Assembly: GCA_036446835.1 (NCBI GenBank)
Contig: JAZFTT010000038.1
Span: 1 to 46,754 of the forward strand
Direction of reading: 5' to 3'
Source of the DNA: Acidimicrobiia bacterium
Lineage (GTDB): Bacteria; Actinomycetota; Acidimicrobiia; Spongiisociales; ZC4RG35
DNA length: 46,754 bases
Position 1 is the first letter of the stretch; each line of letters starts with the position of its first letter. Made by a program: the position numbers and the translations under genes. The notes beneath the pieces are model-generated. The model was not told the DNA's origin. It did not search any database and saw nothing but the letters and a program-made list of their open reading frames with translations. Below, in pieces: positions 887-25,095 of this stretch.

Positions 887-2122
887 CTAGCGTCCCCACC
901 ATTTGCCGATCAGCGCCAGACGGATGAGATGCAACGCAGAAGTGACGGCGTAGGTGCGAACCCTTTCCCTATCCCCGACCATGCGCATCTCCTTTGCCTG
1001 TGTGTGCTCAGGAGTTGAGACACCGATGACCATGGTCCCGACCGGTTTCTCCAGCGGCTCCGGGCCCGCCGAACCGGTGACCGACACCACCACATCGGCG
1101 CCAAGCAACTCGCGTCCGCCCCGGGCCATCTCCTCCGCCGTCTCCAGGTCGACAACCGTCGATGCGTCCCTGACGCCGAGCAGACGCTCCTTCAATTCGG
1201 AGTGATAGGCAAGTATGCCACCGCGAGTAACGGCCGACTAGCCTGGCAGGGAGGTTAGTGGTGCGGTCACCAGGCCACCCGTCATCGACTCTGCCGCGGC
1301 GATGGTGTAGTCGAGTTCGGTGAGCAACTTGAAAATGACTCTCTCGATGGTTTCGTCATCGGTGCCAAACAGGACCGAGCCCATCCGGGACCTGACCTCG
1401 GTCTCCATCGGCTCGATCAGTTTCAATGCCGAGGCTCTGTCATCGGCCTTGGCGGTAATTCGAATCTTGATCTCGCCTCCGGAAGCGAGAAACGCAAGGG
1501 AGGGGTTGGTCGAGCTGCGATAGATGTCGTCCAGCGAATCGGCGATGTCCGACTCCGAGCGACCCCACGTGCGGAGGAGTCGGCTCGCCAGGACGGCCTT
1601 CTCGCCCGATGCGGCGGAGAGACGCGTAATCACCTCTTCGTGCAACAAGTGCTCCATCTCGGCAGGGACCCCGGGCACACAGAAGATCAGAGTGTCTTCG
1701 TGCTCGATCATCAGTCCCGGCGCGGTGCCCTTCGGGTTCGCCAGAAGCTCTGCACCGGCAGGATGCTCGGCCTGTTGGAGGTTGGACTCGGGCATCTCCC
1801 GGCCTCTGCGCTCCCACCACTCCCGCAGATGATCGGCGTACTCGTCACTGAACTCCATCTCGAGACCGGTAGCCAAACAAACCGCCTCCCTGGTGAGGTC
1901 ATCCTGGGTGGGGCCAATCCCCCCGGTGATGATCACCGCATCGGATCGTTTGATGGCAACTCTGATCGATTCCGCGACGCGAGCCTCATTGTCACCCACA
2001 ACCTGTTGGAAGTGAGCGTCAAAGCCGTGTTCGGCTAGAGCCGAGCCGATTGTCGATGCGTTGGTGTTCGTGATCTGGCCGAGCAGCAACTCGGTGCCGA
2101 CGGCGATTACCTCAACAATCAC
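887..2122 (-). pseudogene. cinA: CinA (MoCF-type N-domain plus PncC-type nicotinamide-nucleotide amidase C-domain), interrupted by an in-frame TAG at 1238-1240
   Basis: ORFs 1238..2179 and 887..1195 are in the same frame. Reading through gives ...AAAESMTGGLVTAPLTSLPG*SAVTRGGILAYHSELKERLLGV..., which is colinear with the PncC core (ESCTGG...GSS..F.GG..Y). The probable start, GTG at 2120-2122, overlaps the rimO stop TGA (GTGA). Confidence 0.8.
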
Positions 2123-3426
2123 AGAACAATGGCTTCCATGTCCGGGCCGTAGACCCCGGTGTACTCGACCTTGACCCATTCCCCCGGCTTGCCCCGGTCG
2201 ACGCGGACAACACCGTCGATCTCGGGAGCGTGCCGATATGAACGCCCCACCGGCACATCGTCTTCGACCTGATCGACGAGAATCTCATCGGCTCGACCCA
2301 GCCACGCCTCGTTGTGTGTGGTTGTGACCTCGTCCTGGATTCCGGAGAGATAGCGGAGTCGCTCCAGCGTCACCTCCCTCGGGACCTGATTGTCCATCGT
2401 GGCCGCAGGGGTGCCCGGTTCGGCCGAGTAGGGGAAGAACCCGGCCCAGTCGAGCCGGGCGTTGTCGAGGAAATCAGCAAGCTCGTCGACATTACCGTCG
2501 GTTTCGCCGGGGAAGCCGACAATGAAAGATGACCTAAGGGCCGACGACGGCTCGAGGTCGCGGATGCGGGACACCAGCGCAAGGTGCTTCTCCGTGTTCC
2601 CCGGACGTTTCATCGCCCTCAGCAACGGCTGGGAGACATGTTGAATGGAGAGATCGAAGTATGGGGCCACCATGACGTTGGACGTCATCTCGTCGAGGAG
2701 ACGGTCGCTGATCTCCCGCGGGTGCAGATAGAGCAGTCGGAGACGACGCAGACCGTCGACATCGGAAAGGAAGGCGAGAAGATCCGGAAGCCCGCCGGGG
2801 GCGTCGATGTCGCGTCCATAGGCTGCGAGATCCTGAGCGACCAGCACCACCTCGCTCACCCCGGAACTCACCAGGCCAACGAGCTCATTCCTGATCTCGG
2901 TCGGGCGTCGTGAACGTTGCTTGCCCCGAATCAGTGGGATAGCGCAGAAGGTGCACGGTTTGTTACATCCTTCGGCCACTTTGAGATACGCGTACGGCAG
3001 GTTTGAAACGGGGCGACCTGTGGCGTGCAGGATGTCCATGATCGGGCGCCGTTTGATGTCTACAGGATGCCAACGCGTCAGGTCATCGAGAACTCCCACC
3101 AGTTCGCCGTAGCGGTCGATCCCGAGAACGGCGTCGACTTCGGGTAGGGCCGACGACACCTCTGTACCGAAACGTTGAGCCATGCAACCGATCACGATCG
3201 ACCGGGCGTCGTCGCGCTTGCGATCTTGGAGGTCGAGGATGGTGTCAACCGACTCGGCCCGGGCCTCTTCAATGAATGCACAGGTGTTGACCATGACCAC
3301 GTCGGCGGTCTCGGGTGAGTCGGCCCAGACGTAACCGGCTTCGGAAAGCATCGCCGTGACCTTTTCCGAGTCGACCTGATTTTTTGCACAGCCAAGCGTT
3401 GTGAGCCATAGGGAAGGGACAGTCAT
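2119..3426 (-). CDS. rimO: Ribosomal protein S12 methylthiotransferase RimO (radical SAM plus TRAM domain)
   Basis: N-terminal LGCAKNQVDSE (UPF0004 domain), radical-SAM motif CNKPCTFCAIP, and a C-terminal TRAM-like domain. Start chosen at MTVPSLWLTTLGC (ATG 3424-3426). Confidence 0.9.
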   Translation of the reverse strand: MTVPSLWLTTLGCAKNQVDSEKVTAMLSEAGYVWADSPETADVVMVNTCAFIEEARAESVDTILDLQDRKRDDARSIVIGCMAQRFGTEVSSALPEVDAVLGIDRYGELVGVLDDLTRWHPVDIKRRPIMDILHATGRPVSNLPYAYLKVAEGCNKPCTFCAIPLIRGKQRSRRPTEIRNELVGLVSSGVSEVVLVAQDLAAYGRDIDAPGGLPDLLAFLSDVDGLRRLRLLYLHPREISDRLLDEMTSNVMVAPYFDLSIQHVSQPLLRAMKRPGNTEKHLALVSRIRDLEPSSALRSSFIVGFPGETDGNVDELADFLDNARLDWAGFFPYSAEPGTPAATMDNQVPREVTLERLRYLSGIQDEVTTTHNEAWLGRADEILVDQVEDDVPVGRSYRHAPEIDGVVRVDRGKPGEWVKVEYTGVYGPDMEAIVL

Positions 3427-3727: not shown

Positions 3728-4783
3728 CTATATCTCGGCGAACAGATACCGGCGGAGAATGTCGAGCTTCTCCTCGCGGTGGGAGGGGTCCAGATACCAG
3801 AGCAGCGCTGCCACCGTGGAAAGAAGAGGGTTACCGTCCTGAGGAGTGAAAGAGAAACCCACGACCTCGTTGCCACTGCGCACCGCCAGGGTTTCCAGGG
3901 CAACAACAGCCTGGCTCATGATCCTTCCGTAGTAGCCGTGGTCGCGGCCAAACGAGAACACCTGATTCGCCGACTTCTTGTGGGTGACCGCGATCCGGGT
4001 ATTGGCCATCAGGCGCTCCCTCACCTCGTCCAACGTGATGTCGTGGTCAAGGATCAGAGAGAAGTGCAACGAGTGCATGTATTGCGAGTTCAGCTTGATC
4101 GCAGACGAGAACACGTTCAGGTCGTATCCCAGCGTGCTGAAGATGTCATGGGCGTCACGGGCGTGATGGGTGCCGAACCTCTCATCGCTATGCGCTCCCA
4201 CCGTCGGACTCGCCACATAGCCCGTGTCCTGGGAAATGTCGTTGGCTCTGCGCATGCACATGAAGCGTCCGTCGATGAGATGATTGGTCCCGTCGGTGTC
4301 CATGCCCAACGCCTTGATGAGCACCGAGATGTTGTGGGTGTTGCAACTCACGATCTGGAGAAACTTGTCGTCCTCCCGAGCCAGCGCCGAGTCGTTGATA
4401 CCCCTTGCGTACTTCTTACCGAAACCGTGCTCTGAGCCCTGGGCCATGAATCCGACGGGCCCGATCGCATCCAGATAGAAATCCTGCTTGTTCTGGTTAC
4501 CGACTGGGGTGCAGTCGATCACCACCGAAGCGCGTTCGATTGCCTCTCGCTTCTCGAACTTCGGCGTGTGACCCAACTCTTCAAAGGTCGACTTCTTGTC
4601 GTCGTCGACGCAGAGAACGGCCCCGCGGCGCACCAGATCCGCTACCTTGGCCCTCTCGGTGATCAGCGGAGTGCGTTTGTGAAAAGTGACCTCATCAAGT
4701 CCGAAGTGGTCTTTGTTGTCGGCCAGGAGACCGATCAGGGGCTCACCGATGGTCCCGGTTCCCACTACGTGGACGATGTTCAT
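3728..4783 (-). CDS. Type II (archaeal-type) glyceraldehyde-3-phosphate / semialdehyde dehydrogenase-like NAD(P) oxidoreductase
   Basis: N-terminal Rossmann motif VVGTGTIGEPL, plus the catalytic-Cys motif IVSCNTHN that resembles the archaeal GAPDH SCNT motif. Length 351 aa. Confidence 0.55.
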   Translation of the reverse strand: MNIVHVVGTGTIGEPLIGLLADNKDHFGLDEVTFHKRTPLITERAKVADLVRRGAVLCVDDDKKSTFEELGHTPKFEKREAIERASVVIDCTPVGNQNKQDFYLDAIGPVGFMAQGSEHGFGKKYARGINDSALAREDDKFLQIVSCNTHNISVLIKALGMDTDGTNHLIDGRFMCMRRANDISQDTGYVASPTVGAHSDERFGTHHARDAHDIFSTLGYDLNVFSSAIKLNSQYMHSLHFSLILDHDITLDEVRERLMANTRIAVTHKKSANQVFSFGRDHGYYGRIMSQAVVALETLAVRSGNEVVGFSFTPQDGNPLLSTVAALLWYLDPSHREEKLDILRRYLFAEI

Positions 4784-4916: not shown

Positions 4917-6869
4917 TCAGACGAGGAGCGGGTCGGTGTCGATGTGCACAAGTGAGGGCCCTTCGTAAGCAAGGGCCGCCATGATGGCCTCGTCCAGACC
5001 CGAAGTGTCCCTCGCCCGGAATCCTCGGCCGCCACATAGCTCGGCGAACCCGGCGAAGTCCGGGTTGTTGAGACTCGTCTGCCACACATCGAACTCGCCA
5101 CCACGCTGCTCCTTGCTGATCTTTCCCAACTCGTCGTTGACAAGGAGAATCAGGGTGATGTCCATCTTGTGTTTCACCGCGGTCGTGAACTCCATGGCGT
5201 ATTGGCCAAATCCGCCGTCACCTGCAATGGCAACCACCTGGCGCTCCCCGCCAACCGCAGCCCACAGACCCATCGCCGCCGGAAAGGCGAAGCCGATCGA
5301 CCCCAGATAACCCGACATCACCACCGACTGGTTCTCCACCTCGAAGTAGCGGCCAAACGAGTAGGTATTGTTGCCGACGTCGACAGCCATCACCGCGTCG
5401 GAGTCGATCAGTCCGGACAGACTGTCGAAGATCGCCGCCGAGTTGACGCCCCGACCCGAATCATCGACCCGGCGGCTGGCTTTCTCCCTCCGCCAGATGT
5501 CCCGGCGCTCCGCCACCTCTTCGGTGCGATCCTCGAATCCACCGCCCCCGGTCATTCGGTTTGCCAGCAGCTCAGCAGTCACCCCGACGTGTCCGAGGAT
5601 CGGAATCTCAACGGGGTGGAATCGGCCAAGGGCCATCGGGTCGTAGTCGATCTGAATAATCGGCTTGTAGTCGGCTATCCCGGTGTGATCCGAAAAAGAG
5701 GCCCCGAACACGATCAGCAGATCGCTCTCATTCATGAACCACGAGGCAACCGGCGTGCCACTTCTCCCGAGGACACCGCACCCGAGCGGATGAGAATCGC
5801 TGATCTGACCTTTTGCCTTGAAAGTGGTGACAACGGGAGCGCCCATGCTTTGGGCGCAGTTGATGATGCGGTCCATCTCGAAACGCGCCCCGGCACCCAC
5901 GATGAAAAGAGGCCTTTCAGATTCGGCGATCTTCGCAGCGGCCGAGTCGAGTACGTCTTCTGGTGGCGCAATCTCGCGCTTGCCTGTTCGCCCGGCGGGA
6001 CCCCCCGCCGGCTCGTTGCTCGGTATCACCTGCACCTCATCAGGAAGCACCAGATGTGCCACGTCGCGTTCGACCAAAGCTGTCTTGCAGGCCAAAGTCA
6101 TGATCTCGGCGTAGTTGCCCCCCGGCAGGACGGTCTCTGAGTAGCGGGCGACATCGGTGAACGCACCTTCCAGGTCGAGATCCTGAAAAGCTCCACGCCC
6201 CTTGGTCTTCGAAGGGACCTGCCCGGAGATGGCGAGAATCGGGGCACGATCCACCTTGGCGTCGTACAGGCCGGTCAACAGGTTCGTCGAGCCAGGGCCG
6301 GCGATTCCGAAACAGGCTGCGAGCTCACCGGTGAGCTTTCCGTAGGCGCTCGCCGCGAAGGACGCTGCACCCTCATGGCGTATCCCGATATAGGTCAGGT
6401 CGCCCCTCGTCTCAGCTTCTCTCATAGCGTCGGCAAAACCGAGGTTGGAGTGGCCGACCATGCCGAAGACATGGGTGACTCCCCAGTTGACCATCGTCTC
6501 CACAAGGACATCGCTGACAGTCCTCTCCCGTTCGTGGTGTGGGGGGAGCGCCACGTAGACGCCGTCGTCGCGGACCTCGGTGGCAAAACATGAGGGGCTG
6601 TCAGAGAACCCCTCCGGGGGCTTCCCGTCTAGTGGGTCGTAGTCGTATCCATGCCATGGGCAGCGAAGCCAACCCTTTTCGATCGATCCCTCGCCAAGCG
6701 GACCACCCTGATGGGGACAGCGGTTGTCAAGAGCGCCGTAGGTTCCGTCGACGTTGGTCAGGGCAAGGCTTCGTCTGCCGACGGTGACCGTCTTCACCCG
6801 TCCCTCAGGGAGATCATCGAGTTCGGCAACTTTGTGCCAGGTGGTGTCGGGATGCAGGCATTGGGTCAT
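4917..6869 (-). CDS. Rieske [2Fe-2S] domain fused to a thiamine-pyrophosphate enzyme (pyruvate oxidase/PoxB- or acetolactate-synthase-like)
   Basis: The N-terminal ~105 aa carry the Rieske motifs CPHQGGPL...CPWHGYDY. The remainder has the ALS/PoxB family layout, including the TPP-binding motif GDGGFGQYAMEF...LLVNDELG. Confidence 0.85.
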   Translation of the reverse strand: MTQCLHPDTTWHKVAELDDLPEGRVKTVTVGRRSLALTNVDGTYGALDNRCPHQGGPLGEGSIEKGWLRCPWHGYDYDPLDGKPPEGFSDSPSCFATEVRDDGVYVALPPHHERERTVSDVLVETMVNWGVTHVFGMVGHSNLGFADAMREAETRGDLTYIGIRHEGAASFAASAYGKLTGELAACFGIAGPGSTNLLTGLYDAKVDRAPILAISGQVPSKTKGRGAFQDLDLEGAFTDVARYSETVLPGGNYAEIMTLACKTALVERDVAHLVLPDEVQVIPSNEPAGGPAGRTGKREIAPPEDVLDSAAAKIAESERPLFIVGAGARFEMDRIINCAQSMGAPVVTTFKAKGQISDSHPLGCGVLGRSGTPVASWFMNESDLLIVFGASFSDHTGIADYKPIIQIDYDPMALGRFHPVEIPILGHVGVTAELLANRMTGGGGFEDRTEEVAERRDIWRREKASRRVDDSGRGVNSAAIFDSLSGLIDSDAVMAVDVGNNTYSFGRYFEVENQSVVMSGYLGSIGFAFPAAMGLWAAVGGERQVVAIAGDGGFGQYAMEFTTAVKHKMDITLILLVNDELGKISKEQRGGEFDVWQTSLNNPDFAGFAELCGGRGFRARDTSGLDEAIMAALAYEGPSLVHIDTDPLLV

Positions 6870-6920: not shown

Positions 6921-8198
6921 CTAGAACTGGTCCTCTTCGGTGGAGCCGGTGAGGGCGAGGGTTGAGGAGGTGCCGCCGGATATTGCTTGGGAGACCAGGT
7001 CGAAATAGCCGGCGCCCACCTCACGCTGGTGCTTGGTGGCGGTGTACCCCTGCTCCTCCATGGCAAACTCCTGGTTCTGGAGCTCCACGTACGCACTCAT
7101 CCCCGACTCGTTATAGCCGTGCGCCAGTTGGAACATCGAGGCGTTGAGAGTGTGGAATCCGGCCAAAGTGATGAACTGGTAGCGGTATCCCATGATGCCC
7201 AGTTCCTTCTGGAACATGGCGATCGTGTCCTCGTCGAGTTGGGCAGACCAATTGAACGACGGAGAGCAGTTGTAGGCCAGCATCTTGGCAGGGAACTCGG
7301 CATGAATGGCCCCGGCGAACCTTCGAGCCTCGTCGAGGTCGGGCTTGGCAGTCTCACACCAGATCAGGTCGGCGTACGGGGCGTAGGCCAATCCTCTGGC
7401 GATCGCCGAGTCGAGTCCGTCACGAACCTCGAAGAAGCCTTCGGCGGTGCGGACGCCTGTGGTGAACTCGCGGTCGCGGGGATCGACGTCCGAGGTGAGC
7501 AAGGTTGCCGAGTTGGCGTCTGTGCGGGCGACGATGAGGGTCGACACACCGGCAACGTCCGCTGCCAGTCGGGCCGAGCGAAGCGTTCGGACATGCTGGC
7601 TGGTCGGCACTAACACCTTTCCGCCCATGTGGCCGCACTTCTTCTCGGCGGCGAGTTGATCCTCGAAGTGCACACCCGCAGCTCCAGCTTCGATGAAAGA
7701 CTTGGTCAACTCGAATACGCTGAGGGCACCGCCAAAGCCCGCCTCGCCGTCGGCCACGATGGGGACAAACCAATCCATCTCGATGTCTCCCTCGGCCCAA
7801 TGGATCTGGTCGGCGCGACGCAAGGCATTGTTGATCCGCTTCACCATCGCCGACGCCGAGTTGGCCGGGTAGAGCGATTGGTCGGGGTAGACCTCACCCG
7901 CCAGGTTTCCGTCGCCCGCCACCTGCCATCCGGACAGGTAGATCGACTTGAGCCCGGCCTTCACCATCTGAACGGCCTGTCCCCCGCTGAGTGCTCCGAG
8001 GGCGCTTATGTAGTCCTCCGTGGTCAGGAGTCGCCACAGCTTCTGAGACATCCGGTTGGCCAGTGTGTGCTGCTCGCGGATACTGCCCCTCAGACGAACC
8101 ACCTCCTCGGCGGTATAATCGCGAGTGATGCCGTCCCAGCGCGGATTGGTCTTCCAGTCATCGGCTAGGCGGGCAGCCTCATTTGCGAAATGCGACAC
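6921..8198 (-). CDS. aceA: Isocitrate lyase
   Basis: ICL signature KKCGHMGGK. Start is GTG at 8196-8198, preceded by GAAGGAGAG. The resulting 425 aa is a typical length. The longer ORF (to 8510) overlaps aceB and is Arg/Gly-rich. Confidence 0.95.
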
Positions 8199-8209
8199 AG
8201 GTCTCTCCT

Positions 8210-9769
8210 TCAGGTGATGAGCTCGTACGCTGGCAAGGTGAGAAAGTCGACAAAGCTCTCGTCGAGCGCAACTTCCTCGAAGATCTTCCGGGCGTATTCG
8301 CATTGACCCGGGTGGGGGTGTTCTTCCTCCTCGATCTGGCGAACAACGTCGCCACCGATCGACCTGACCAGCTCCTCGGTGACCGGAGTGCCGTCGGAAG
8401 TGATCACCCCGTGGTGGACCCACTGCCAGATCTGGGACCTGGAGATCTCCGCCGTGGCCACGTCCTCCATCAGGTTGTTGATGGCAACCGCGCCGATCCC
8501 GGAGAGCCACGAGGTTAGATATCGAATCCCGACCGACACGTTGGTGTGGACGCCGTCGATTGTTACGTCACCTGAAAAATCAACATCGAGCAAGTCTCCG
8601 GCGCCGACCTCCACGTCCCCGCGCAGTCGATCGATTTGGTTCGGGTTGCTGCCCAGCATCAGGTCAAACTCTCTCATGGCAATCGGCACCAGATCCGGAT
8701 GCGCTACCCAGGTGCCGTCGCAACCCGCGTCCGCCTCCCTGGCCTTGTCGGCGGACACCGCAGCCACCGCCTTTTTCGTCACCTCGTGGTCGCGTCGGTT
8801 GGGAATGAACGCCGCCATTCCACCAATCGCGTGAGTCCCTCTCCGGTGACATGTCTTGATCATCAACTCCGTGTAGGCATGCATGAAAGGCACGGTCATC
8901 GTCACCTGGGACCGGTCCGGAAGGACAAAGTCAGACCTGTTCCTGAACTTCTTGATCATTGAGAAGATGTAATCCCATCGTCCGGCGTTGAGGCCGGCGG
9001 CATGCTCTCTGAGCTCGTAGAGGATCTCGTCCATCTCGAATGCCGCCAGAACGTTCTCGATGAGAACGGTGGCCTTGATGGTTCCTTGCGGCATGTCGAG
9101 ATTGGCTTGTGTCCAGACGAACACGTCGTTCCAGAGCCGGGCTTCATGATGGGACTCCAGCTTGGGAAGGTAGAGGTAGGGCCCTGTCCCGTTGTGAATA
9201 GCGGCCCCGGCGCCGTGGAACATGTAGAGCCCGAAGTCGAAGAGCGATGCCGACATCGGTCGCCCGTCAACCAGAAAGTGCTTCTCGGTGAGATGCCAAC
9301 CGCGGGGCCGGACCATGAGGGTGGCGACCTCGGTGTTGAGCTTGTAGTGCTTCTTGTCCGTCTCCATCTCGAGGGTTCTCTCATAAGCCCCGACGATGTT
9401 GAGATGGCCCTCGAGAAGGTTGTTCCACCGGGGAGAGGTGGCGTCCTCGAAGTCCGCCATGAACACCTTCGCCCCCGAGTTGAGGGCGTTGATCATCATC
9501 TTGGCGTCCACCGGACCGGTGATCTCGACCCTCCGGTCCTCGAGATCCTCGGGGACCGGTGCGACCGTCCAGTCACCATCCCGGATTTGGCTGGTCGCCG
9601 GGTCGAAGTCAGGAATCTCACCGCCGTCGATCGCGTGCTGGCGAACCTCTCGTCGGGTCAGGATCTGTCCACGCCGCCAACCAAACTCGTTCTCCAGATC
9701 GATGAGAAAGGCGACCGCATCGGGTGTGAGCATCTTTCGCTCCGTGGCGGTCTGCTTGAATTGATTCAC
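8210..9769 (-). CDS. aceB: Malate synthase A
   Basis: 519 aa, colinear with AceB-type malate synthases (N-terminal [16 protein letters not shown], central [12 protein letters not shown]). GTG start. The stop lies inside the aceA Shine-Dalgarno sequence. Confidence 0.95.
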
Positions 9770-9852
9770 AAGACACTATCTTCTTCGCTCCTACACCAAG
9801 ATCAGTTCAATTCTGGGTATAAGATCGATCTATCTTTCGGATTGGAGGAGAT
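9770..9852. promoter_or_regulatory. Divergent aceB / ramB promoter-operator region
   Basis: 83-bp intergenic region containing AAGAcacTATCTT (9770-9782), AAGAtcgatcTATCTT (9821-9836) and the perfect 10-bp palindrome AGATCGATCT (9822-9831). The ramB Shine-Dalgarno GGAGGAG is at its right end. Confidence 0.4.
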
Positions 9853-11304
9853 ATGGTCGAACCTCGGCAATTGGATCCCCTGGTACTGGGACGACGGCTA
9901 CGTCACTACCGAAACGAAGCCGGACTCACTCTGGATCAGCTTGGACGACAAGTGGGAAAGCCCGCCCCCTATCTTTCGCTTCTCGAGAATGGCAAAAAGG
10001 AGCCCCGGGTAACCCTGGTGATGGACCTGGCGTCTGCGCTCGAAGTCGACGTCTCGGATCTCCTCGAGCCCACTCCCCCGAGCCGACGTGACTCGCTCGA
10101 GATCGCCCTCATCCGATCACAGGAGAGTGCTCTGTTCGAATCGCTCGATCTCCCCGCCGTAAAACCCAGCGCCAAGATGAGCACCGAGACCCTGACGCAC
10201 ATCGTTGGCCTCCATGCGGCTCTGCGTGACAAATCGGGTCTCGACTCGGCAGGTTCCGAAGACGTTCGACGTGCCAACGGCGCCGTTCACGCCTATCTGG
10301 CCGACAACGATGGACACCTCGAACATGTGGAAGCCGCGGCACGCAAGGCACTGGCCGCCTCCGGGTACGCCGGGGAAGGACCGTTCTCATCGCGAAACCT
10401 CCTCGACCTCGTCGCCGACTCCGGGTTCGATCTGACACCCATCGATGACATGCCCCTGTTCGCACGATCCATCATCGACACCGAGCACCACCGCATCTAC
10501 ATCGCCCAACGCAACGAACTACGCACCCGTCAAGCCCGAAAGGCGGTACTCCAGACCCTCGCCGGATCGCTTCTCGAGCACGAGACCAATCCCGATCTCG
10601 ACACTTTCCTACGACAGAGAATGGAGACCGCCTATTTCGCAGGAGCCGTACTCGTCCCGGAAGAGGCTGTGGTCGGCCGGCTCCGAACTTCCAGGGAGCA
10701 GCACGACATCGACGTCGAAGACGTGAAGGAGCTCTACTACGTCTCCTATGAGATGGCGGCATGGCGAATCGTCAATCTTCTCACCCGACACCTTGGAATC
10801 GAGTGTCATCTTCTCATCAGCGACCAGATGGGGACGATCGTCAAGGGGTACTCAAACGATGGACTGCCCGTCGATCGAGATGAGCACGGGGGTCTGGAGA
10901 CCCAGCGCATATGCCGCCGGTGGGGAGCCAGGGCCACGTTCGACTCGGTCGACCGCTTCGTGACCCACCACCAGTACACCGACACCTCCGCGGGTACCTT
11001 CTTCTGTACAACACACGTCGAAGCGGACCGGGATCCGTCCTACGCCACCACCCTGGGGGTCAAGTTCGCCGATGCCCGCTGGTTCCGAGGGCGGGACACC
11101 GAGAACCGGGAGACTTCAGGCTGTCCCGATCCCACTTGCTGTCGGAATCCAGCGGCTGACGCCGCCGAGAGGTGGGAGAACAAGGTGATCGTCTCGGCTC
11201 GGTCACAAGCCCGAATCTTGGGACTTCTCGCCCCTGACCCCTACCCCGAGCTGGACATGCCGGAGGTGCTTTCGGTTGTGGAACGTCACTCCGAGGACCG
11301 CTAG
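9853..11304 (+). CDS. ramB: XRE-family HTH plus ImmA/IrrE-like domain regulator, RamB/ScfR type (glyoxylate-shunt / acetate regulator)
   Basis: N-terminal HTH LGRRLRHYRNEAGLTLDQLGRQVGKPAPYLSLLENGKK. Length 483 aa. It is divergent from aceBA, as ramB is next to icl in Mycobacterium and Corynebacterium. Confidence 0.8.
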   Translation: MVEPRQLDPLVLGRRLRHYRNEAGLTLDQLGRQVGKPAPYLSLLENGKKEPRVTLVMDLASALEVDVSDLLEPTPPSRRDSLEIALIRSQESALFESLDLPAVKPSAKMSTETLTHIVGLHAALRDKSGLDSAGSEDVRRANGAVHAYLADNDGHLEHVEAAARKALAASGYAGEGPFSSRNLLDLVADSGFDLTPIDDMPLFARSIIDTEHHRIYIAQRNELRTRQARKAVLQTLAGSLLEHETNPDLDTFLRQRMETAYFAGAVLVPEEAVVGRLRTSREQHDIDVEDVKELYYVSYEMAAWRIVNLLTRHLGIECHLLISDQMGTIVKGYSNDGLPVDRDEHGGLETQRICRRWGARATFDSVDRFVTHHQYTDTSAGTFFCTTHVEADRDPSYATTLGVKFADARWFRGRDTENRETSGCPDPTCCRNPAADAAERWENKVIVSARSQARILGLLAPDPYPELDMPEVLSVVERHSEDR

Positions 11305-11407
11305 CTGGGGCGATCTCGAGGACATCGGAGGCGTTCTCGACATCACCGCCAACGCTGCCAAACAAAGAATTCATCGGGCCAGGCAAAACCTGGTTCGAGA
11401 ATACCTA
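11303..11407 (+). pseudogene. Remnant of an ECF sigma factor (region 4.2 only)
   Basis: SWGDLEDIGGVLDITANAAKQRIHRARQNLVREYL is a sigma-70 region-4 HTH. The frame opens only at 11189, inside ramB, so regions 2 and 3 are absent. Confidence 0.6.
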
Positions 11408-11458
11408 CGAGACCAAAAGAAGACAGTTTCCCCCGTTGCTCAGGAAGGATGGTGTGCC

Positions 11459-12238
11459 GTGAGCGTTGAGACTCAAGTCCTTGCTCTCTTCGAAAAGGGC
11501 AATCCGGTCCCAGAACTAGATGGTCTGGAGAGGATCGATCCCGATGCTGCTGCCTACCTCGCAACCCTGATTCAAGGGAGCAGCGAAGTGACACAAATAG
11601 AGACAGAGAAAGTCGAGGAGCAGGAAGAGAAGCGACCGATGATGCCGTGGCTGATAGCAGCGGTCCTGGCTGTGGTCGTCGGAGTCGCATTGTTGGTCAT
11701 CAACCACGGCGCCAAGGACGCTCCAGTCGCATCCGACAACGGTGGCTGATGCGGTGCCAACCACTACCGGTCCGCCGACCGCGACTGAGCAACCCGGTAC
11801 AACCATCGACGCGGCCGAGGCTGCCTAGGAGTCGATACCGATCTATTCCGGGGGGCCGGCCGGGCACTACCGGGTCTTGGGGTTCGTCCCCGCATTCTCG
11901 TTCGACGTCCCGGATGGGTGGATACCGGATGCGAATACGCCAGGAGAGGATGCCTTTGCGCTAACCCCCTTCGAGGGACGAAACGAAGATACGATCGCCG
12001 GAGGTGTCTTCTTCCGCGTCGATGAGTCCACCATCAGCGACCAAGTGAATCGTTTCGTGAACAGTGGGGGCCGGGAATCGGGACATGGATCCTCGGTCCC
12101 GAAGAAGACGCAGGTGAGTACGTCATTTACATTCTCGATGTAAACGGCGACACGGTCCTCATCGTTGGTGAGCTCGCCGCCGGTCGGCAAGCGATCGACA
12201 ACCTCGCCAACTCCATCGTCTGGAAAGACCTCAACTAG
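11459..12238 (+). pseudogene. Disrupted single-pass membrane protein in the anti-sigma position
   Basis: The coding signal switches from frame 2 (GTG 11459 to TGA 11747-11749; TM segment MMPWLIAAVLAVVVGVALLVI) to frame 0 (about 11745-12070, with an in-frame TAG at 11826-11828) and back to frame 2 (ending KDLN-TAG at 12236-12238). Adding one G to the G5 run at 12066-12070 restores ...VNSGGPGIGTWILGPEEDAGEYV... Confidence 0.5.
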
Positions 12239-12245
12239 GCCCAAT

Positions 12246-12288
12246 GCGTGTGCAGGAGTGTGGAATGGGTCCACGTTCCTGCACACGC
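12246..12288. terminator. Bidirectional terminator-like hairpin between convergent genes
   Basis: 12-bp arms GCGTGTGCAGGA (12246-12257) and TCCTGCACACGC (12277-12288) flank a 19-nt loop that contains an inner GTGG/CCAC stem. It lies between the pseudogene stop (12238) and the S10 peptidase stop (12295). Confidence 0.55.
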
Positions 12289-12294
12289 TCGGTA

Positions 12295-13773
12295 TCAGGT
12301 CGTGTCGGTGACGAACTCCCTCAGGTGACCGGCCAATGCGGCAAGTGATGGCTGATGCACGTACATCATGTGACCGGCTTCGTAGTACTCCATGCGCACG
12401 TTCTCTCTTACTTCAGGATCAAGTCCCATATGGGAGAACGTGTACTCGGTGGCAAAATGTGGCGTCGCCAGATCGAAATAACCGTTGGCGACAAAGACGT
12501 GGGTACCTTTCGACCGGGAAAGCACCTCACGCATGTTCTCCGAAGTGTCCACGTACTGATTCTTGAAGTCTTCGAACTCCCATCGCTCGTTGACTTTCAT
12601 CGACAGGATCTCGTAAATCTCTTTGGAGTCGAACCCGATCTCGTCTCTCAGATAGTGGTTCAGCGCCGAAGTCGCCACGGCTCCAGTGGCGTCCGTGCTT
12701 GGATCAGCCTCGATGATGTTTCCGTCGCTATCCCGGTCGATACCGACATAACGGGAGTCGATTCGACCAACCGTCCTTCTCTGATCACGCAGAAGTTCCT
12801 TGCAGAATCGAAGGATGTGGATGCGAAGGTCGTAGCGATCGATGTACTCGGCACCAAGACCCGTGTACTCACCAAGCTTCTCTGCCACCGACGCCCGCTC
12901 CGCGGTGTCTATCTGATCACCTGCAGCGAGAGCCGACCAGTAGTCCCTAAGGGCGAACTCCTCGACTTCATCGAGAAGCTCCCTGACCGATCTCGACTGA
13001 AGCTCGTCCGACAGCTGACCGTGGTACCAGGCCGTCGCTGCGTAAGTCGGCAGATAGAGCGCGTAAGGGAGGTCGTTGCCGGGGTGGAACATCAGGGACT
13101 TGCGATCGAGCCCCACCGTCTGATAGTTGAGAATCGAAGAGATCAGGACGATGCCGTTGAACTCGACGCCGTGGGTGGCGAACAGCTCACGGGCGATTGC
13201 CGCTCCTCGCAAGGTGCCGTAGCTCTCCCCCGCCAGATACTTCGGCGAGGCCCATCGACCGTTTCGGTTCAGGTAATGCACTATGAAGTGACTGAAAGCC
13301 TCGACATCGTGTTTGTAGTGGTGGAAATCCTTCTCGTCCTCTTTCTTGGCCGTGGTGCTGAACCCGGTGCCCATCGCATCGACACACACCACATCGGTCA
13401 CGTCGAGGATCGAGTGCTCGTTCTCGATGAGCTTGCCCTGCATGCCCGTTTTGAAGCCCTCCTCGTCAAACTCCATCCGCATCGGCCCGAAGAGACCGAG
13501 ATGAAGCCAGACCGTCGATGAGCCCGGGCCGCCGTTGAAGCAGAAGAGGATCGGTCGCGTTGCCGAGTCTGCCTCGTCTTTGGCGTAGGAAACGTAGAAG
13601 AACGAAGCCTTTTTCTCGTTGACCTCGAATACCTGGGTCGCCGCCGTCGCCGTGTAGGCAACCTTCTCCCCGCCAAACACACCCGTGTACTGCCGCGTTG
13701 CTTTCTTCTCCTTGAGTTCAGGAGATTTCGTCTTTGACTTATTCTTCTTTTTCTTGCTCTTGTCTTTTGCCAT
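12295..13773 (-). CDS. Serine carboxypeptidase, MEROPS S10 family
   Basis: Motifs FCFNGGPGSS and the catalytic-Ser motif LAGESYG. The N-terminus is Lys-rich (MAKDKSKKKKNKSKTKSPELKEKK) and there is no signal peptide. Confidence 0.85.
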   Translation of the reverse strand: MAKDKSKKKKNKSKTKSPELKEKKATRQYTGVFGGEKVAYTATAATQVFEVNEKKASFFYVSYAKDEADSATRPILFCFNGGPGSSTVWLHLGLFGPMRMEFDEEGFKTGMQGKLIENEHSILDVTDVVCVDAMGTGFSTTAKKEDEKDFHHYKHDVEAFSHFIVHYLNRNGRWASPKYLAGESYGTLRGAAIARELFATHGVEFNGIVLISSILNYQTVGLDRKSLMFHPGNDLPYALYLPTYAATAWYHGQLSDELQSRSVRELLDEVEEFALRDYWSALAAGDQIDTAERASVAEKLGEYTGLGAEYIDRYDLRIHILRFCKELLRDQRRTVGRIDSRYVGIDRDSDGNIIEADPSTDATGAVATSALNHYLRDEIGFDSKEIYEILSMKVNERWEFEDFKNQYVDTSENMREVLSRSKGTHVFVANGYFDLATPHFATEYTFSHMGLDPEVRENVRMEYYEAGHMMYVHQPSLAALAGHLREFVTDTT

Positions 13774-13782: not shown

Positions 13783-14349
13783 CTAAACCGAGCGAGGTCG
13801 CCCGTCGTCACCAAGCCAGTCTTCGCCAGACACACCAAGACCCTCGGCTATTCGGTTGATGTAGTTGAAGTAAGCAACGACTTGAACACAGCTCGAAATA
13901 GCCTGGTCGTCGTATCCGTGGCGACGAAGACGTTCGACGTCGGCGGCGTCGACAGCGCCAGGCTTGGCGGTGATTCTCTCTGTGAACTCGAGCAATTCAC
14001 GGGTCGGGTCATCCAGTCGAGCGGTACGCCAACCGACCGCGAATCGATCAACCGTCTCCTGATCGTCGACCTCATCCCGGAGGTCGTGTAAATGCGCTGC
14101 TATTCAGTAGTGACACTCATTCGACTGAGACGTGACCACGGCGATCATCTCCCGTTGCGCGCGGGACAGGGGCGAAGGGCCATACATGATCGATTGGTAG
14201 AGACGCATCGAATCACGCATCACCTCGGGAAGTTGACTCTGGATCGAGACGATGTTCCAGATCCTCCCAGCCCGCCGTTGCGCTGCGTCGTACTCGCGAC
14301 GAGCAACTCCCGAAGTCTCGTCATATTCGAGAACGTGGACGTGTGGCAC
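13783..14349 (-). CDS. AhpD/carboxymuconolactone-decarboxylase-family peroxidase-related protein; candidate selenoprotein with an in-frame UGA at 14104-14106
   Basis: ORFs 14104..14349 and 13783..13995 share a frame, and the 36 codons between them are open. The joined 188-aa product reads SQSNECHY[TGA]IAAHLHDL, which is the CxxCxxxH motif with TGA at the second Cys. GTG start is 2 nt after the E2 stop. Confidence 0.7.
14067..14086 (-). other. SECIS-like hairpin downstream of the in-frame UGA
   Basis: The mRNA reads UGA, then 17 nt, then CGACCUC-CGGGAU-GAGGUCG, a perfect 7-bp stem with a 6-nt G-rich apical loop. Confidence 0.5.
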
Positions 14350-14351: not shown

Positions 14352-15596
14352 CTATCCGGCCAGAAAGAGAGCAGGCTCTTCGAGATTCTCCATCACCAGG
14401 GACATGAACCTCCTACCCAGACCGCCATCGATCACCCGGTGGTCATATGAGAGCGACAGTGGCATCACCGGGGCAATGGCCAGATCCCCGTCGTAAACGG
14501 TGGGCTTCGACTTTGCGCGACCGATCGACAGGATGGCCGTCGTCCCCGGAGGAACGATGGGCGTTCCATGCCCACCGCCTACTGCGCCAATATTGGAAAC
14601 GGTGAACGTTTGCCCCGTGAGCTCGTCGGGGGAGAGCTTGCGTTCCCGTGCGCCTTCTCCCAACCGTGCCACCTCGGTGGCGAGTTCGAGAACTCCCTTC
14701 GAGTCGGCGTCGCGGATCACCGCCACGAGAAGCCCATCGGGTGTGTCGACGGCGATCCCGATGTCATGTGAGCCATGCACCAACAGGTCATCACCCTCCA
14801 AGGTGGCGTTGAACTCCGGGAAAGCGCTCAAGGCGGGAAGCACCGCCCGTACCAGCAGAGCCTCGATGGGAATCTTGATTTGGTGTCGCTCACTCAGCGC
14901 GACGCGAACCTCGAGGAGCCTTGTCGCATCCACATCGTCGAAGGTCGTCACGTGGGGGATCTCGGCCCAACTCTTCGCCATGTTGGCTGCGATGGTGCGG
15001 CGCAGACGAGACATGGGACGACGCTCGTCCAGGCTCGTTGTGGTGGCTACAGAAGGTTTCGCCGGCTCGGTTTCTGACGGAGCCGCCTCTCTCGCGGTCG
15101 GAGGAGCGGTGGAGGCAATGGCGGCTTCGGCGTCCTCGCGGGTGACCCTTCCTCCCGTCCCGGTCCCGGTGACGGTCTCCAGGTCGAGCCCGGCGTCACG
15201 AGCCAGTTTGCGGACTACTGGCAGGGCTTTCACAGATGTCGCAACGGGCGCCACCGACTCGGTGACAGCCCCGATCACCTCCGCCTCTTCGCTGATTGTT
15301 CCGACTATGGGGGCAGCCTCGGATGTCTCAACCGGCGGTCTGCCGCCCGCTGTCTCGCCTTGGGTACCAATTACCACCAACACCGCGCCGACCTCGATGG
15401 TCTCTCCCTCGGCGCCGCCGTGACGGACCACGATTCCCTCGTAAGGCGACGGAATTTCGACAACCGCCTTGTCGGTCTCCACCTCGACGATGGGTTGATC
15501 GGCGGCAACCGGGTCGCCCTCAGCGATCAGCCAGCGGACAATCTCGGCCTCGGTGAGACCTTCGCCTATGTCGGGAAGTCTGAACTCGCGAGCCAC
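14352..15596 (-). CDS. Dihydrolipoamide acyltransferase (E2) of a 2-oxoacid (branched-chain/pyruvate) dehydrogenase complex
   Basis: Lipoyl domain PDIGEGLTEAEI...VETDKAVVEIPSP, subunit-binding domain ALPVVRKLARDAGLDL, and catalytic motif SYDHRVIDG. GTG start at 15594-15596 is preceded by GGAGGA and overlaps the E1 beta stop TAG by 1 nt. Confidence 0.9.
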   Translation of the reverse strand: MAREFRLPDIGEGLTEAEIVRWLIAEGDPVAADQPIVEVETDKAVVEIPSPYEGIVVRHGGAEGETIEVGAVLVVIGTQGETAGGRPPVETSEAAPIVGTISEEAEVIGAVTESVAPVATSVKALPVVRKLARDAGLDLETVTGTGTGGRVTREDAEAAIASTAPPTAREAAPSETEPAKPSVATTTSLDERRPMSRLRRTIAANMAKSWAEIPHVTTFDDVDATRLLEVRVALSERHQIKIPIEALLVRAVLPALSAFPEFNATLEGDDLLVHGSHDIGIAVDTPDGLLVAVIRDADSKGVLELATEVARLGEGARERKLSPDELTGQTFTVSNIGAVGGGHGTPIVPPGTTAILSIGRAKSKPTVYDGDLAIAPVMPLSLSYDHRVIDGGLGRRFMSLVMENLEEPALFLAG

Positions 15597-16585
15597 TATT
15601 CCTCCAATGTCCTTCTCGCTGCGGCAGTGATCCGATCCACAGATGGAAGGTAGTGGCCTTCTGAACGCTTGAGCGGGAAGACCGTGTCCCAACCGGTAAC
15701 ACGCTGCACCGGCGCCAGCAGCGAGTAAAGACACCGCTCCTGAATGGTGGCGGCGATCTCACCCCCAAACCCTCCGGTCAATGGAGCCTCGTGCACCACC
15801 ACGGCCCGACCGGTTTTCTCAACACTGGCCACGATCCCATCACGATCCAGCGGCGTCAATGTTCGGACATCGATCACCTCCACCGAGACGTCTTCCTCTT
15901 CGAGGGCAGAAGCCGCCCGTCGGGTCTCCCTCATCATCGCTCCCCAGCCAAACAGGGTGACATCGTCACCCGATCGCTCGACACGAACCGGGCCGATGTC
16001 AACCCGGTAGTAGATCTCGGGGATCTGCTCCTTGATGGCCCGATACAGCCTGATCGGTTCGAGAAACACGACTGGATCAGGGTCCTCGATGGCGGCAAGC
16101 AGCAATCCGCGGGCGTCTCGGGGCGTGGACGGCACAACGACCTTGACACCCGGGATGTGCGCGTAGATGGCCTCTGTCGACTCCGAATGGTGCTCGGCTG
16201 CTCCTATCCCGCCGCCGTAGGGGATGCGGATCACCAGCGGGGCAGTGAATCGGTGGTTGGAGCGGTTTCGGATCCGGGCAACATGATTGATGACCTGGTC
16301 ATATGCCGGATAGGAGAATCCCAGGAACTGAAGCTCGGCCACCGGCCTCATCCCGGCGATGGCCATGCCAAACGCTGCTCCGACGATGCCAGACTCGGCG
16401 ACCGGGGTATCGAACACCCGATTCGTCCCGTATTTGTCTGCAAGCCCATCTGTGATCCTGAAGACGCCTCCGGTACGCCCGATGTCCTCACCAAGCAAGA
16501 CCACCCGATCGTCGGAGGACAGCGCGGTGTCCAGCGCACCATTCAGGGCCTGAGCGAGGTTCAACTCATTCATCGGCAACCCCAT
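15596..16585 (-). CDS. 2-oxoacid dehydrogenase E1 component, beta subunit
   Basis: Typical E1 beta sequence (LNLAQALNGALD..., GEDIGRTGGVFR, C-terminal transketolase-like domain). An alternative ATG at 16573 (MNELNLAQAL) overlaps the E1 alpha stop. Confidence 0.95.
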   Translation of the reverse strand: MGLPMNELNLAQALNGALDTALSSDDRVVLLGEDIGRTGGVFRITDGLADKYGTNRVFDTPVAESGIVGAAFGMAIAGMRPVAELQFLGFSYPAYDQVINHVARIRNRSNHRFTAPLVIRIPYGGGIGAAEHHSESTEAIYAHIPGVKVVVPSTPRDARGLLLAAIEDPDPVVFLEPIRLYRAIKEQIPEIYYRVDIGPVRVERSGDDVTLFGWGAMMRETRRAASALEEEDVSVEVIDVRTLTPLDRDGIVASVEKTGRAVVVHEAPLTGGFGGEIAATIQERCLYSLLAPVQRVTGWDTVFPLKRSEGHYLPSVDRITAAARRTLEE

Positions 16586-17702
16586 CCGGTTGTTGGGTCA
16601 GAGACGGGGGTCTCTCCGCAAACACCCGGTCCACCATCTGCTCAAAGGTTGGCTCGGGCACGTTCTCGGCCCACTCAACAGCCTCCTCGATGACCTCAGA
16701 GGCATTCTTCTCCAGCTCCGTCTGCCACTCCTCGGTCCAGCCCGCGGCCTTCTCGAGAAGTCGTCGAACACGGAGGAGCGGGTCTCGGCCCTCCCAGTCC
16801 CTCGACTCGGCCTCGTCCCGATAACGGGTTGGATCGTCCGCGGTGGTGTGGGGGCCCATCCGATAGGTGACAGCCTCGATCAGACTTGGCCCCTCTCCCT
16901 TTCGAGCCCGATCCGCAGCCTCGCGGACGGCGACCAACACTCCCACTACATCGTTTCCATCGACGCGAACCCCCGGCATCCCGTATCCGTCTGCCTTTGC
17001 GGCGATCGTTTTCGATTTGGTCTGCTCCGCAGTCGGATAGGAGATCGCGTAACCATTGTTCTGACACAGAAAGACCGTCGGCGTCGCGAATACGGCAGCG
17101 AAGTTCATTGCCTCGTGGAAGTCACCCTCTGACGTGGCCCCGTCGCCGAAAGAGGTAAGTGCGATCCTGTTGCTTCCCTGGAGCTTTTCCGCCCATGCCA
17201 GCCCCACAGCATGGATCATGTGGCCGCCCACGGTGATCGACGGTGGCAGTACATTCACGCCCTGGGGCGGCTCTCCGCCGCGCTCGTCTCCTGTTCGACC
17301 CAGGAAAAGCAGACGCCACGGGTAGCCGGCGCGCCAGTTGAGGGCGGCGTCGCGGTAGGTCCCCACAACCCAATCGTCTTCGTGGAGGGCGGCCGCGGCG
17401 CCGATCTGGGCAGCCTCCTGGCCGCGAAACGGCGCGTAGGTGGCCAGTCGCCCTTGACGCTGCATCGCCATAGATTTCTCGTCGTATGTGCGGGCTTCCA
17501 CCATGTCGGCGTACAGATCCCGCATGTCCTCCACTGTTATCGGAAGACGATCACGAACCGATCCATCCGAATTCACCAGTCCAAACATCGAGGGATTCCC
17601 ATCGACCTGAGTCTGCCCTGATGATATGGTGCGCGTCGTCTCGGATGCAGATGGGATGAGGGCCTCGAGACCGCGGCCCAGCCCTGATTTGCGTGAAGTC
17701 AA
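16566..17702 (-). CDS. 2-oxoacid dehydrogenase E1 component, alpha subunit (TPP-dependent), with an unusual N-terminal extension
   Basis: TPP-binding region GDGATSEGDFHEAMNFAAVF...LCQNNGYAIS. The TTG start at 17702 has AAGGAA 6 nt upstream. An internal ATG (MFGLVNSDG, aa 39) is an alternative start. Confidence 0.9.
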   Translation of the reverse strand: MTSRKSGLGRGLEALIPSASETTRTISSGQTQVDGNPSMFGLVNSDGSVRDRLPITVEDMRDLYADMVEARTYDEKSMAMQRQGRLATYAPFRGQEAAQIGAAAALHEDDWVVGTYRDAALNWRAGYPWRLLFLGRTGDERGGEPPQGVNVLPPSITVGGHMIHAVGLAWAEKLQGSNRIALTSFGDGATSEGDFHEAMNFAAVFATPTVFLCQNNGYAISYPTAEQTKSKTIAAKADGYGMPGVRVDGNDVVGVLVAVREAADRARKGEGPSLIEAVTYRMGPHTTADDPTRYRDEAESRDWEGRDPLLRVRRLLEKAAGWTEEWQTELEKNASEVIEEAVEWAENVPEPTFEQMVDRVFAERPPSLTQQPDGVADE

Positions 17703-24049: not shown

Positions 24050-24979
24050 CTATCTGTGAAAGAACGGTGTGGCGATGGGCTCGTATTCGTCCGAGAGACT
24101 GTCGGTCAAGCGATCCGCCACCACACCAGATTCTTCGAACAACCTGAGAACCTCGGTGGGGTCCCGCTGAGCATTCGCCGCGGTGATGGCCACTGCCGTC
24201 TGATATTGCTCTTCGAAATACCGGACGAAAGCAGCGTTGTCTTCTACGAATTCGGAGGGCGGGTTGAGTTCAGCCATCCTCTCACCGGTGTCCTTCAGGG
24301 CCTTTTCGATATAGGACTGAACCTCGTTGAGTCTGACAGCTCGTTCCTCGGGTGAGAGATCCGGAGGGAAACCGAAGAAACCCTGGGTGTCCAGGGTGAA
24401 CCGGCGTAGAGCTTCATGGGCGTCTAACCCATACTGGCCTCCAGGCAGTCCATCGCCGGCAACGCAAAGTGCGCCTTCGTCAATTTGTCCAAATGCGAGG
24501 CAGAAGTCCCGGCTTGCATTTAACGCCAGGACGCTGACGCGCCGTAACATCGCATCATTCACCCCTAGTACCTCTTCCAGGTCTTGTTTCTCCAGGGCGG
24601 CAATCAACTCATCGGCCAGAGCGACAATCGCTATCCGATACTCGATCCATACCTGATGGTCCCTTTCGAACTCCTCAGGTGGTGACAATGCGTCGGCCCT
24701 GACAAGGGCACTCTCCGAAGCACCCGGTATCCCCGCGTCGGCGATCGCTGTCAGCAAAGCCTCGCGTGTCTGGTAGACCTGTTGCATCCTCTGATCGATG
24801 CTTTCAAAGACTGCGCCGAAGTTGCTGGAGATCTCGGCAACTGCCTCCAGATAGGCCTCGGCCTCCTCGCTGATCTCCGAGCCTGCGGGGTCGGCGGAAC
24901 CAGTGCCGCAGGCGGAAACCACAATCGCCATCGCGGCAACCAGTGCGATGAACGCTCCTCTCTGACCTGCTTCCAGCAT
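24050..24979 (-). CDS. Hypothetical lipoprotein
   Basis: Signal peptide plus lipobox AIVVSAC-GTGS. There is an internal duplication of an L-x-PP-x-EF...Y motif. No recognised family. Confidence 0.6.
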   Translation of the reverse strand: MLEAGQRGAFIALVAAMAIVVSACGTGSADPAGSEISEEAEAYLEAVAEISSNFGAVFESIDQRMQQVYQTREALLTAIADAGIPGASESALVRADALSPPEEFERDHQVWIEYRIAIVALADELIAALEKQDLEEVLGVNDAMLRRVSVLALNASRDFCLAFGQIDEGALCVAGDGLPGGQYGLDAHEALRRFTLDTQGFFGFPPDLSPEERAVRLNEVQSYIEKALKDTGERMAELNPPSEFVEDNAAFVRYFEEQYQTAVAITAANAQRDPTEVLRLFEESGVVADRLTDSLSDEYEPIATPFFHR

Positions 24980-25095
24980 CGATGTCACAATACGAAGCAC
25001 TATCGGCAACCCAGCCCTCCTGTGTCGCAATGACGACACACAATCCCACTCGACAACGCAGGCGCGCCGACAGTCATTCCTTAGGATCGACGACC

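Follow-up and report, generated by a model that had tools for sequence, protein, structure and literature searches.

The 'AhpD-like protein' (COG2128), which carries selenocysteine (Sec, U) in a CxxU motif, was introduced in 2005 by Zhang, Fomenko and Gladyshev as a new selenoprotein family with 27 sequences from the Sargasso Sea (PMC1088965). By 2006 it had been detected in a few complete genomes (PMC1794560). It ranked with the most abundant selenoprotein families of the Global Ocean Sampling (GOS) survey, where AhpD-like 1 accounted for 299 sequences (PMC2398784), and is entered in a 2026 review as 'AhpD-like protein, TIGR01926, CxxU', with the pairing of a Prx-like gene and an AhpD-like gene as the sole operon link mentioned (PMC13188914). 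Here we describe a gene of this kind on the minus strand of a 46.7-kb contig from an Acidimicrobiia bacterium (JAZFTT010000038.1); 'the window' denotes the whole stretch of 46,754 nucleotides (nt) that was analyzed. From its sequence and its comparison with relatives, we consider it highly probable that this is an intact AhpD-like (TIGR01926, CxxU) selenoprotein gene in which UGA codon 82 is read as Sec, and that it stands behind genes for the E1 and E2 components of a pyruvate dehydrogenase (PDH)-type complex.

A second described system that bears on this locus is the relay of Mycobacterium tuberculosis that runs from NADH through Lpd, DlaT (the E2 lipoamide), AhpD and AhpC to ROOH, wherein the reduction of AhpD by E2 lipoamide provides a biochemical precedent (PMC12028322). 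The proton relay of this AhpD consists of Glu118, Cys130, His132, Cys133 and His137, and that of Pseudomonas aeruginosa PA0269 consists of Glu36, Cys48, Tyr50, Cys51 and His55 (PMC3141380).

When set against the AhpD-like CxxU family, the window gene shares its hidden Markov model family, the predicted Sec at the second position of CxxU, a stem-loop with a G-containing loop past the UGA and the existence of widespread Cys homologues, and nothing in the gene itself is different. The first-pass annotation of this DNA had proposed a candidate selenoprotein, and that proposal is supported by every check that could be run. Its main claim is not new, however, because the family had already been catalogued, and the annotation was right that AhpD-like selenoproteins are known from metagenomic surveys (PMC1088965, PMC2398784).

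The list of open reading frames (ORFs) divides the gene into two minus-strand pieces, 14104..14349 (81 amino acids, GTG start) and 13783..13995 (70 amino acids, TTG start). Translation of 14349..13783 yields 188 codons followed by TAG with a single internal stop, the TGA at 14106..14104, which bears out the earlier claim that the two pieces form one frame with no other interruption. The sequence around this stop reads ...VVTSQSNECHY*IAAHLHDLRDEVDDQ..., and the downstream part begins with IAAHLHDL. Orthologues start with M(P/A)HVHV at the same place as the window protein. The features of the gene are as follows.

13783..14349, minus strand: predicted AhpD-like (TIGR01926) selenoprotein gene of 188 codons including Sec82, with the terminal TAG at 13783-13785.
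14347..14349, minus strand: GTG start codon of the AhpD-like gene, 2 nt past the stop codon of the E2 gene (14354..14352).
14104..14106, minus strand: UGA codon 82, predicted to be read as Sec, at the second position of the motif C79-H-Y-U82-x3-H86.
14067..14086, minus strand: hairpin of the bacterial selenocysteine insertion sequence (bSECIS) type, identified by its minimum-energy fold and by comparison with relatives.
14092..14151, minus strand: predicted catalytic relay codons E67 (14151-14149), C79 (14115-14113), Y81, U82 and H86 (14094-14092).

For profile searches, the stop was replaced by Cys in the 188-residue product. The NCBIfam model TIGR01926 ('peroxidase-related enzyme') matches residues 3-174 of 188 with 138.3 bits against a cut-off of 81.8, and Pfam CMD also matches, such that the proposed membership in the AhpD-core and peroxidase-related CMD family is sound. 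The M. tuberculosis-type AhpD model TIGR00777 scores only 16.1 bits against a cut-off of 191.95 and aligns with nothing but the active-site helix pair (residues 61-100), and on this measure the window gene is outside that subfamily. A further relative is NF041238 (AhpD_rel_CFYUT), named 'hypothetical protein 1' in the Sargasso Sea survey, which likewise has an AhpD-related domain and a CxxU motif in which Sec takes the corresponding position. It is nevertheless a separate and longer family, and its match to the window protein (59.9 bits against a cut-off of 175) is partial and limited to the C-terminal third of the 357-position profile.

Among proteins of known structure, the relatives are 2pfx and 2oyo, two structural-genomics entries labeled 'peroxidase-related proteins', followed by 6k40 (Deinococcus radiodurans AhpD-like), 3c1l (Mlr4105) and 2prr, with E values from 4e-24 to 5e-19 and 27-33% identity over approximately 176 columns. 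Their CxxC motif lies opposite C79 and U82; at the second position all of these proteins are Cys forms, not selenoproteins. In the alignments with 2pfx (CFYC) and 2oyo (CLYC), as with Cys homologues in general, the second Cys of CxxC falls opposite the TGA, and this finding upholds the earlier placement of the stop in the second-Cys column of CxxCxxxH. A Cys orthologue that is 67% identical to the window protein (database protein P0004) was modeled with a mean predicted local distance difference test score (pLDDT) of 96.8, and the model superimposes on 2oyo, 2pfx, 3c1l, 2prr and 6k40 with template modeling (TM) scores of 0.85-0.89 and root-mean-square deviations of 1.6-2.6 Å.

The family alignments also retain the residues of the relay, with E67 and H86 invariant and Y81 nearly invariant. 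The spacing of E67, C79, U82 and H86 (12, 3 and 4) is the same as that of E118, C130, C133 and H137 in M. tuberculosis AhpD. Thus, the two proteins share the all-helical AhpD/CMD fold, the spacing E-x11-C-x2-C/U-x3-H and, at the level of gene position, a lipoylated E2 nearby. They differ in that the window protein has Tyr rather than His between the redox residues, as PA0269 does, has a predicted Sec in place of Cys133, belongs outside TIGR00777, and has no adjacent ahpC that we found in the window. In its sequence, the window gene displays every feature by which the TIGR01926 CxxU AhpD-like selenoprotein family is defined.

To compare the UGA codon among relatives, we scanned one genome per species and kept the best 80 of 550 relatives. 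Among these loci (L numbers below), the redox column is occupied by TGA in 77 of 80, by TGC in two (L019 and L069) and by AGC in one (L074), and is never TAA or TAG. The scan loci come from at least eight phyla and include Acidimicrobiia, Candidatus Actinomarina, Thermoleophilia/Gaiellaceae, Chloroflexota, Planctomycetota, Acidobacteriota, Gemmatimonadota, Latescibacterota and others. A set of 80 TGA loci was parsed further (the window, L001-L005 and 74 scan loci), and in each of the 80 the frame remains open for 98-125 codons past the TGA. This downstream portion includes a highly conserved motif, VVAYFNYINRIAEGLGV, and the gene ends with a terminator of its own, which is TGA in 34, TAG in 29 and TAA in 16 of the parsed loci. 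A relative whose DNA is 80% identical likewise carries both the TGA and the hairpin.

Pairs of Sec and Cys orthologues, which the first-pass annotation had advised seeking, are present in the same synteny. Cys occupies the redox column as TRYC in L019, L069 and L089, and as CRYC in the database proteins P0003 and P0004. In L019, L069, L089 and P0005-P0014 the first Cys of the motif is also gone (S-T-R-Y-C), and HLHDL is changed to HWHD(F/Y). A Caldilineaceae homologue (L074, AGC at 8223-8225; P0046) is a Ser variant with the motif CHYS and lacks the hairpin.

The hairpin begins 17 nt past the UGA, with a 5′ arm at 14086-14080 (CGACCUC), a loop at 14079-14074 (CGGGAU) that begins 24 nt past the UGA, and a 3′ arm at 14073-14067 (GAGGUCG). 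It lies inside the coding sequence and encodes H-D-L-R-D-E-V, an instance of the conserved peptide H-D-L-R-x-E-V. A bacterial SECIS element is recognized as a stable stem-loop that closely follows the UGA within the coding sequence and has a G in its small apical loop (PMC1088965). The 7-bp stem and 6-nt loop that had been noted in the first-pass annotation are indeed present in the minimum-energy fold, at -11.3 kcal/mol.

Two observations count against a dedicated function for this hairpin. First, when folded as a single sequence it barely surpasses shuffled sequences, with z = -2.0 for 33 nt and z = -1.2 for 71 nt, so that the folding check gave the expected structure at only modest distinction from chance. 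Its significance must therefore come from comparison with relatives. Second, the conserved peptide HDLRxEV also constrains much of the stem, and sequence conservation alone is consequently ambiguous. The argument rests on compensatory changes, on AT-rich genomes and on the Cys forms as controls.

The comparative set holds 73 distinct sequences of 48 nt from the TGA onward. In the 7-pair helix, 93.9% of cells pair, and this value falls to 22-46% once the 3′ arm is displaced by 1-3 columns. Three of the seven pairs show changes on both sides, from C-G to U-A, in 10, 8 and 3 sequences, respectively, and all of 500 column shuffles fell short of the covariation score of the real alignment. Compensation is evident, for example, as GAUCUC...GAGAUC in L012 and L014, where the protein changes from Val to Ile, and as GACUUC...GAAGUC in L054 and L065, with Leu replaced by Phe. 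The hairpin of L046 is largely recoded and still pairs. The apical loop is CGGGNN or CGUGNN; variants with 'RSE' gain one pair and close on GGUC, and the loop contains a G in either case.

Seven Actinomarina loci, whose overall GC content is 32-35% (30-33% in the genes), all retain GATCTCCGGTCGGAGACA, an element with 61% GC. The maintenance of such an element in AT-rich genomes shows that selection acts on the nucleotide sequence. Among the controls, the Cys forms L019 and L069, in which Leu is replaced by Tyr or Phe, have stems of only -5.2 and -7.7 kcal/mol that fold no better than shuffles, the Ser form has lost the hairpin, and more distant Cys forms do not have the HDLRxEV peptide at all. 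Judged by these comparisons, the hairpin is a conserved SECIS-type element that is selected beyond the protein code, and the earlier description of a 7-bp hairpin with a G-rich loop can be extended to one that is conserved with covariation in the Sec forms. A scan of the window with Rfam at gathering thresholds gave no matches, and bacterial SECIS elements are poorly represented in that database.

The machinery for Sec insertion is found close to the gene in several relatives. L043, L060 and L066 each have a tRNA gene for Sec (anticodon UCA) 1.2-4.8 kb upstream of the AhpD-like gene. Downstream, L060 has SelB and SelA 1.5 kb from the AhpD-like gene, L043 has SelB, and the neighbor cluster represented by the SelB ORF of L043 spans five loci. 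In Thermoleophilia/Gaiellaceae, the gene is effectively inside the sel locus, between the tRNA gene and selB-selA (L060 6566-12965; L043 2649-8669; L066 3212-3304). Furthermore, a 2026 preprint reports selA, selB, selC and selD in 84 of 84 complete genomes of Actinomarina, an Acidimicrobiia order. We also scanned the window for additional in-frame TGA codons with open flanks, using a filter on GC content at third codon positions, and this filter dropped even the gene under study.

If the UGA is decoded as in known bacterial systems, a complex of SelB, GTP and Sec-tRNA(Sec) would bind the G-containing apical loop as the ribosome arrives at the UGA, and SelB with its Sec-tRNA(Sec) would insert Sec at codon 82. 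By analogy with AhpD, U82 would then replace the second Cys of the proton-relay site E67...C79-x-Y81-U82-x3-H86. The U82 selenolate could attack an oxidized substrate or partner, as proposed from M. tuberculosis AhpD, after which C79 would resolve the adduct to form a selenenylsulfide with U82, and a dithiol donor would re-reduce this U82-C79 bond. One candidate for this donor is the dihydrolipoyl arm of the E2 protein encoded by the preceding gene, which would serve as DlaT does for M. tuberculosis AhpD. This lipoamide link is a hypothesis drawn from gene order, which in the window is as follows.

14352..15596, minus strand: E2 dihydrolipoyl acyltransferase, with Pfam domains Biotin_lipoyl, E3_binding and 2-oxoacid_dh and the lipoyl-lysine motif VETDKA.
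15596..16585, minus strand: E1 beta subunit, with Pfam domains Transket_pyr and Transketolase_C.
16566..17702, minus strand: E1 alpha subunit of the PDH type, with Pfam E1_dh and TIGR03181 above its cut-off.
12295..13773, minus strand: S10-like serine carboxypeptidase gene, with Pfam Peptidase_S10.

The E1 alpha product matches TIGR03181 (PDH_E1_alph_x) with 430.9 bits against a cut-off of 411.35. The top NCBIfam match of E1 beta is PDH E1 beta, with a score under the cut-off of that model. The E2 ORF reaches up to 15734, and a GTG at 15596 that overlaps the E1 beta stop by 1 nt is the probable start. The sequence and the Pfam domains confirm the order E1 alpha, E1 beta, E2, AhpD-like, with the GTG of the last gene 2 nt behind the E2 stop. 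The S10-like gene begins 9 nt past the AhpD-like stop and may close the transcription unit to which the AhpD-like gene belongs; no terminator-like sites were found on the minus strand between E2, the AhpD-like gene and the S10-like gene. The S10-like product has a very Lys-rich N-terminus, MAKDKSKKKKNKSKTKSPELKEKK, and the position of its gene is kept throughout the clade.

The order FtsK, E1 alpha, E1 beta, E2, AhpD-like, S10-like peptidase recurs in the Acidimicrobiia loci L006-L019, L069 and L089, Cys-form orthologues included, and across these loci the AhpD-like protein is 59-87% identical to that of the window. In 10 of the 14 clade loci measured, the distance from the E2 stop to the AhpD-like gene is only -1 to +3 nt. 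The AhpD-like gene stands behind E1 alpha, E1 beta and E2 in the window and in 14 related Acidimicrobiia loci, and the short gap to E2 in most of them makes co-transcription very probable. One clade locus, L018, is an exception and comes from a frameshift-rich assembly.

We found no literature in which a selenoprotein of the AhpD-like family is connected with lipoamide or with an operon for a 2-oxoacid dehydrogenase, although this search was not exhaustive; within the same limit, the view of the first-pass annotation that the linkage was undescribed stands. The gene thus belongs to an already known selenoprotein family, and its linkage to E2 may be the only new element. In M. tuberculosis, ahpD adjoins ahpC rather than dlaT.

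The most far-reaching version of the lipoamide hypothesis would make the selenoprotein a dedicated accessory of the PDH-type complex in this clade. The dihydrolipoyl arm of E2 would serve as the direct reductant of the U82-C79 selenenylsulfide, and the resulting relay would detoxify peroxides or maintain the lipoyl arms or other thiols in the reduced state with no need for a thioredoxin system, while TRYC orthologues would depend on the second lipoamide thiol to resolve the mixed disulfide. If this were true, dependence on lipoamide would explain why one-Cys (T-R-Y-C) forms are tolerated only in the E2-linked context. The loss of the first Cys is, speculatively, compatible with an external dithiol that resolves the intermediate. 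We regard this proposal as tentative and rather unlikely in its entirety.

The rival account that survives best accepts the selenoprotein and holds that its place behind E2 has no functional meaning, the gene being part of a long conserved gene string and its reductant being, for example, thioredoxin or a low-molecular-weight thiol. We judge this to be slightly favored by the evidence, and several findings speak for it and against a specific tie to E2. The E2 link sits in a longer syntenic block that includes unrelated genes such as FtsK and the S10-like peptidase and extends to a helix-turn-helix (HTH) regulator, malate synthase and isocitrate lyase, so that adjacency to E2 may be due to inherited synteny as much as to function. 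A gene for ribose-phosphate pyrophosphokinase (prs) has been inserted between E2 and the AhpD-like gene in L014 and probably also in L012, the ORFs having been examined in L014, and the two genes are 335 nt apart in L011. The link is confined to one Acidimicrobiia clade and one looser case (L078), and there is no E2 neighbor in approximately 65 loci of other lineages. Outside the clade, the gene instead adjoins a TetR-type gene in L001-L005, has a synteny of its own in Actinomarina and lies at the sel locus in Thermoleophilia. When neighbors were clustered across all loci, no partner gene was conserved family-wide, and conservation proved lineage-specific. Finally, no peroxiredoxin or AhpC/TSA domain was found in the approximately 36 window ORFs that were scanned.

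Three points favor a functional tie over mere synteny. The gap of -1 to +3 nt is typical of translationally coupled operon genes, the M. tuberculosis precedent demonstrates that E2 lipoamide can reduce an AhpD (PMC12028322), and in the locus L078 the selenoprotein gene is found with a 2-oxoacid dehydrogenase cluster for a second time, independently of the clade. In this Vicinamibacterales genome (Acidobacteriota), the interval 8001-12738 carries the Sec form of AhpD-like, an enoyl-CoA hydratase, E1 alpha, E1 beta and E2 on one strand.

With regard to the prs insertion, the gene occupies 6996-7946 of L014 within a 1,008-nt gap between E2 and AhpD-like. The corresponding gap in L012 is 954 nt, at the same site and of similar size.

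A far weaker alternative to the selenoprotein reading is a pseudogene, in which an ordinary AhpD-like gene of the Cys type has been broken in two by a plain nonsense mutation or an assembly error. The first-pass annotation had raised this caveat because other genes of the window appeared disrupted. Indeed, cinA in the window also has an in-frame stop, and tRNA-Sec, SelA, SelB and SelD were not found among the tRNA genes or scanned ORFs of the 46.7-kb window, which contains no tRNA gene at all. Both points speak for a lesion, and the second also counts against Sec decoding. However, the same TGA is present in 77 of the 80 best loci, all from diverged genomes, the codons downstream are undecayed in all 80 parsed loci, the hairpin is conserved and covaries, and sel genes adjoin the AhpD-like gene in relatives. 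These observations contradict the pseudogene explanation, which we consider very improbable, and a simple nonsense mutation can be excluded as the origin of the TGA.

The cinA gene (872-2179, minus strand) has a TAG at 1238-1240 inside the CinA/PncC C-terminal domain, ...LTSLPG*SAVTRGGILAYHSELK..., and the frame remains open and domain-like for approximately 120 codons past it. Because the codon is TAG, it is not a Sec codon; it reflects a genuine nonsense mutation or else an error in the base sequence. The earlier observation of disrupted genes holds for cinA and does not carry over to the AhpD-like TGA, which is not such a lesion.

Least probable of all is that UGA has been reassigned in this organism to Trp or Gly, as the W at the site in six full-length database proteins (P0001, P0002, P0015, P0018, P0022 and P0042) might suggest, for TGA terminates 9 of the 23 confident window genes and so is no general sense codon, the column is occupied by Cys rather than Trp in true homologues and solved structures, and the DNA that underlies two of these W entries has TGA. 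Stop-codon usage thus contradicts reassignment.

The W entries belong to one of three kinds of relatives in the protein collection, the others being full-length Cys forms (CRYC or TRYC) and fragments. N-terminal fragments stop exactly at ...NECHY or ...NDCHY, and fragments of approximately 105 amino acids begin with xAHLHDL. For P0002 (L086:86-652) and P0022 (L087:1217-1777), the stored product differs from the translation by table 11, and because their DNA has TGA, we attribute the W forms to a gene-calling artefact. The affected public clusters, with W at the Sec site or with split halves, hold hundreds of member sequences, and the W arises on short metagenome contigs.

Two other features of the window are of separate note. 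A 650-amino-acid ORF at 4917-6869 (minus strand) joins an N-terminal Rieske [2Fe-2S] domain to the full set of N, M and C domains of a thiamine-diphosphate enzyme, which is an unusual architecture. Pfam gave no match at E <= 1e-3 or 1e-4 for four long ORFs of 323-695 amino acids, namely 24050-25039 (minus), 31033-33120 (plus), 3728-4783 (minus) and 37929-38900 (minus).

The immediate consequence of these findings is that the two pieces should be merged and entered as a single selenoprotein gene. Standard gene callers break it up into products of 81 and approximately 105 amino acids or read the UGA as Trp, and both annotation errors are widespread in public protein sets. The Actinomarina relatives found here are probably the abundant marine sequences of the Sargasso Sea and GOS surveys. 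The sequences further indicate that soil and sediment Acidimicrobiia related to the source genome are likely to use selenocysteine as well, and at least eight phyla have this CxxU AhpD-like protein in common, together with a SECIS that hardly varies. Its placement behind E1 alpha, E1 beta and E2 would provide this abundant family with a candidate reductant, which may be E2-bound dihydrolipoamide.

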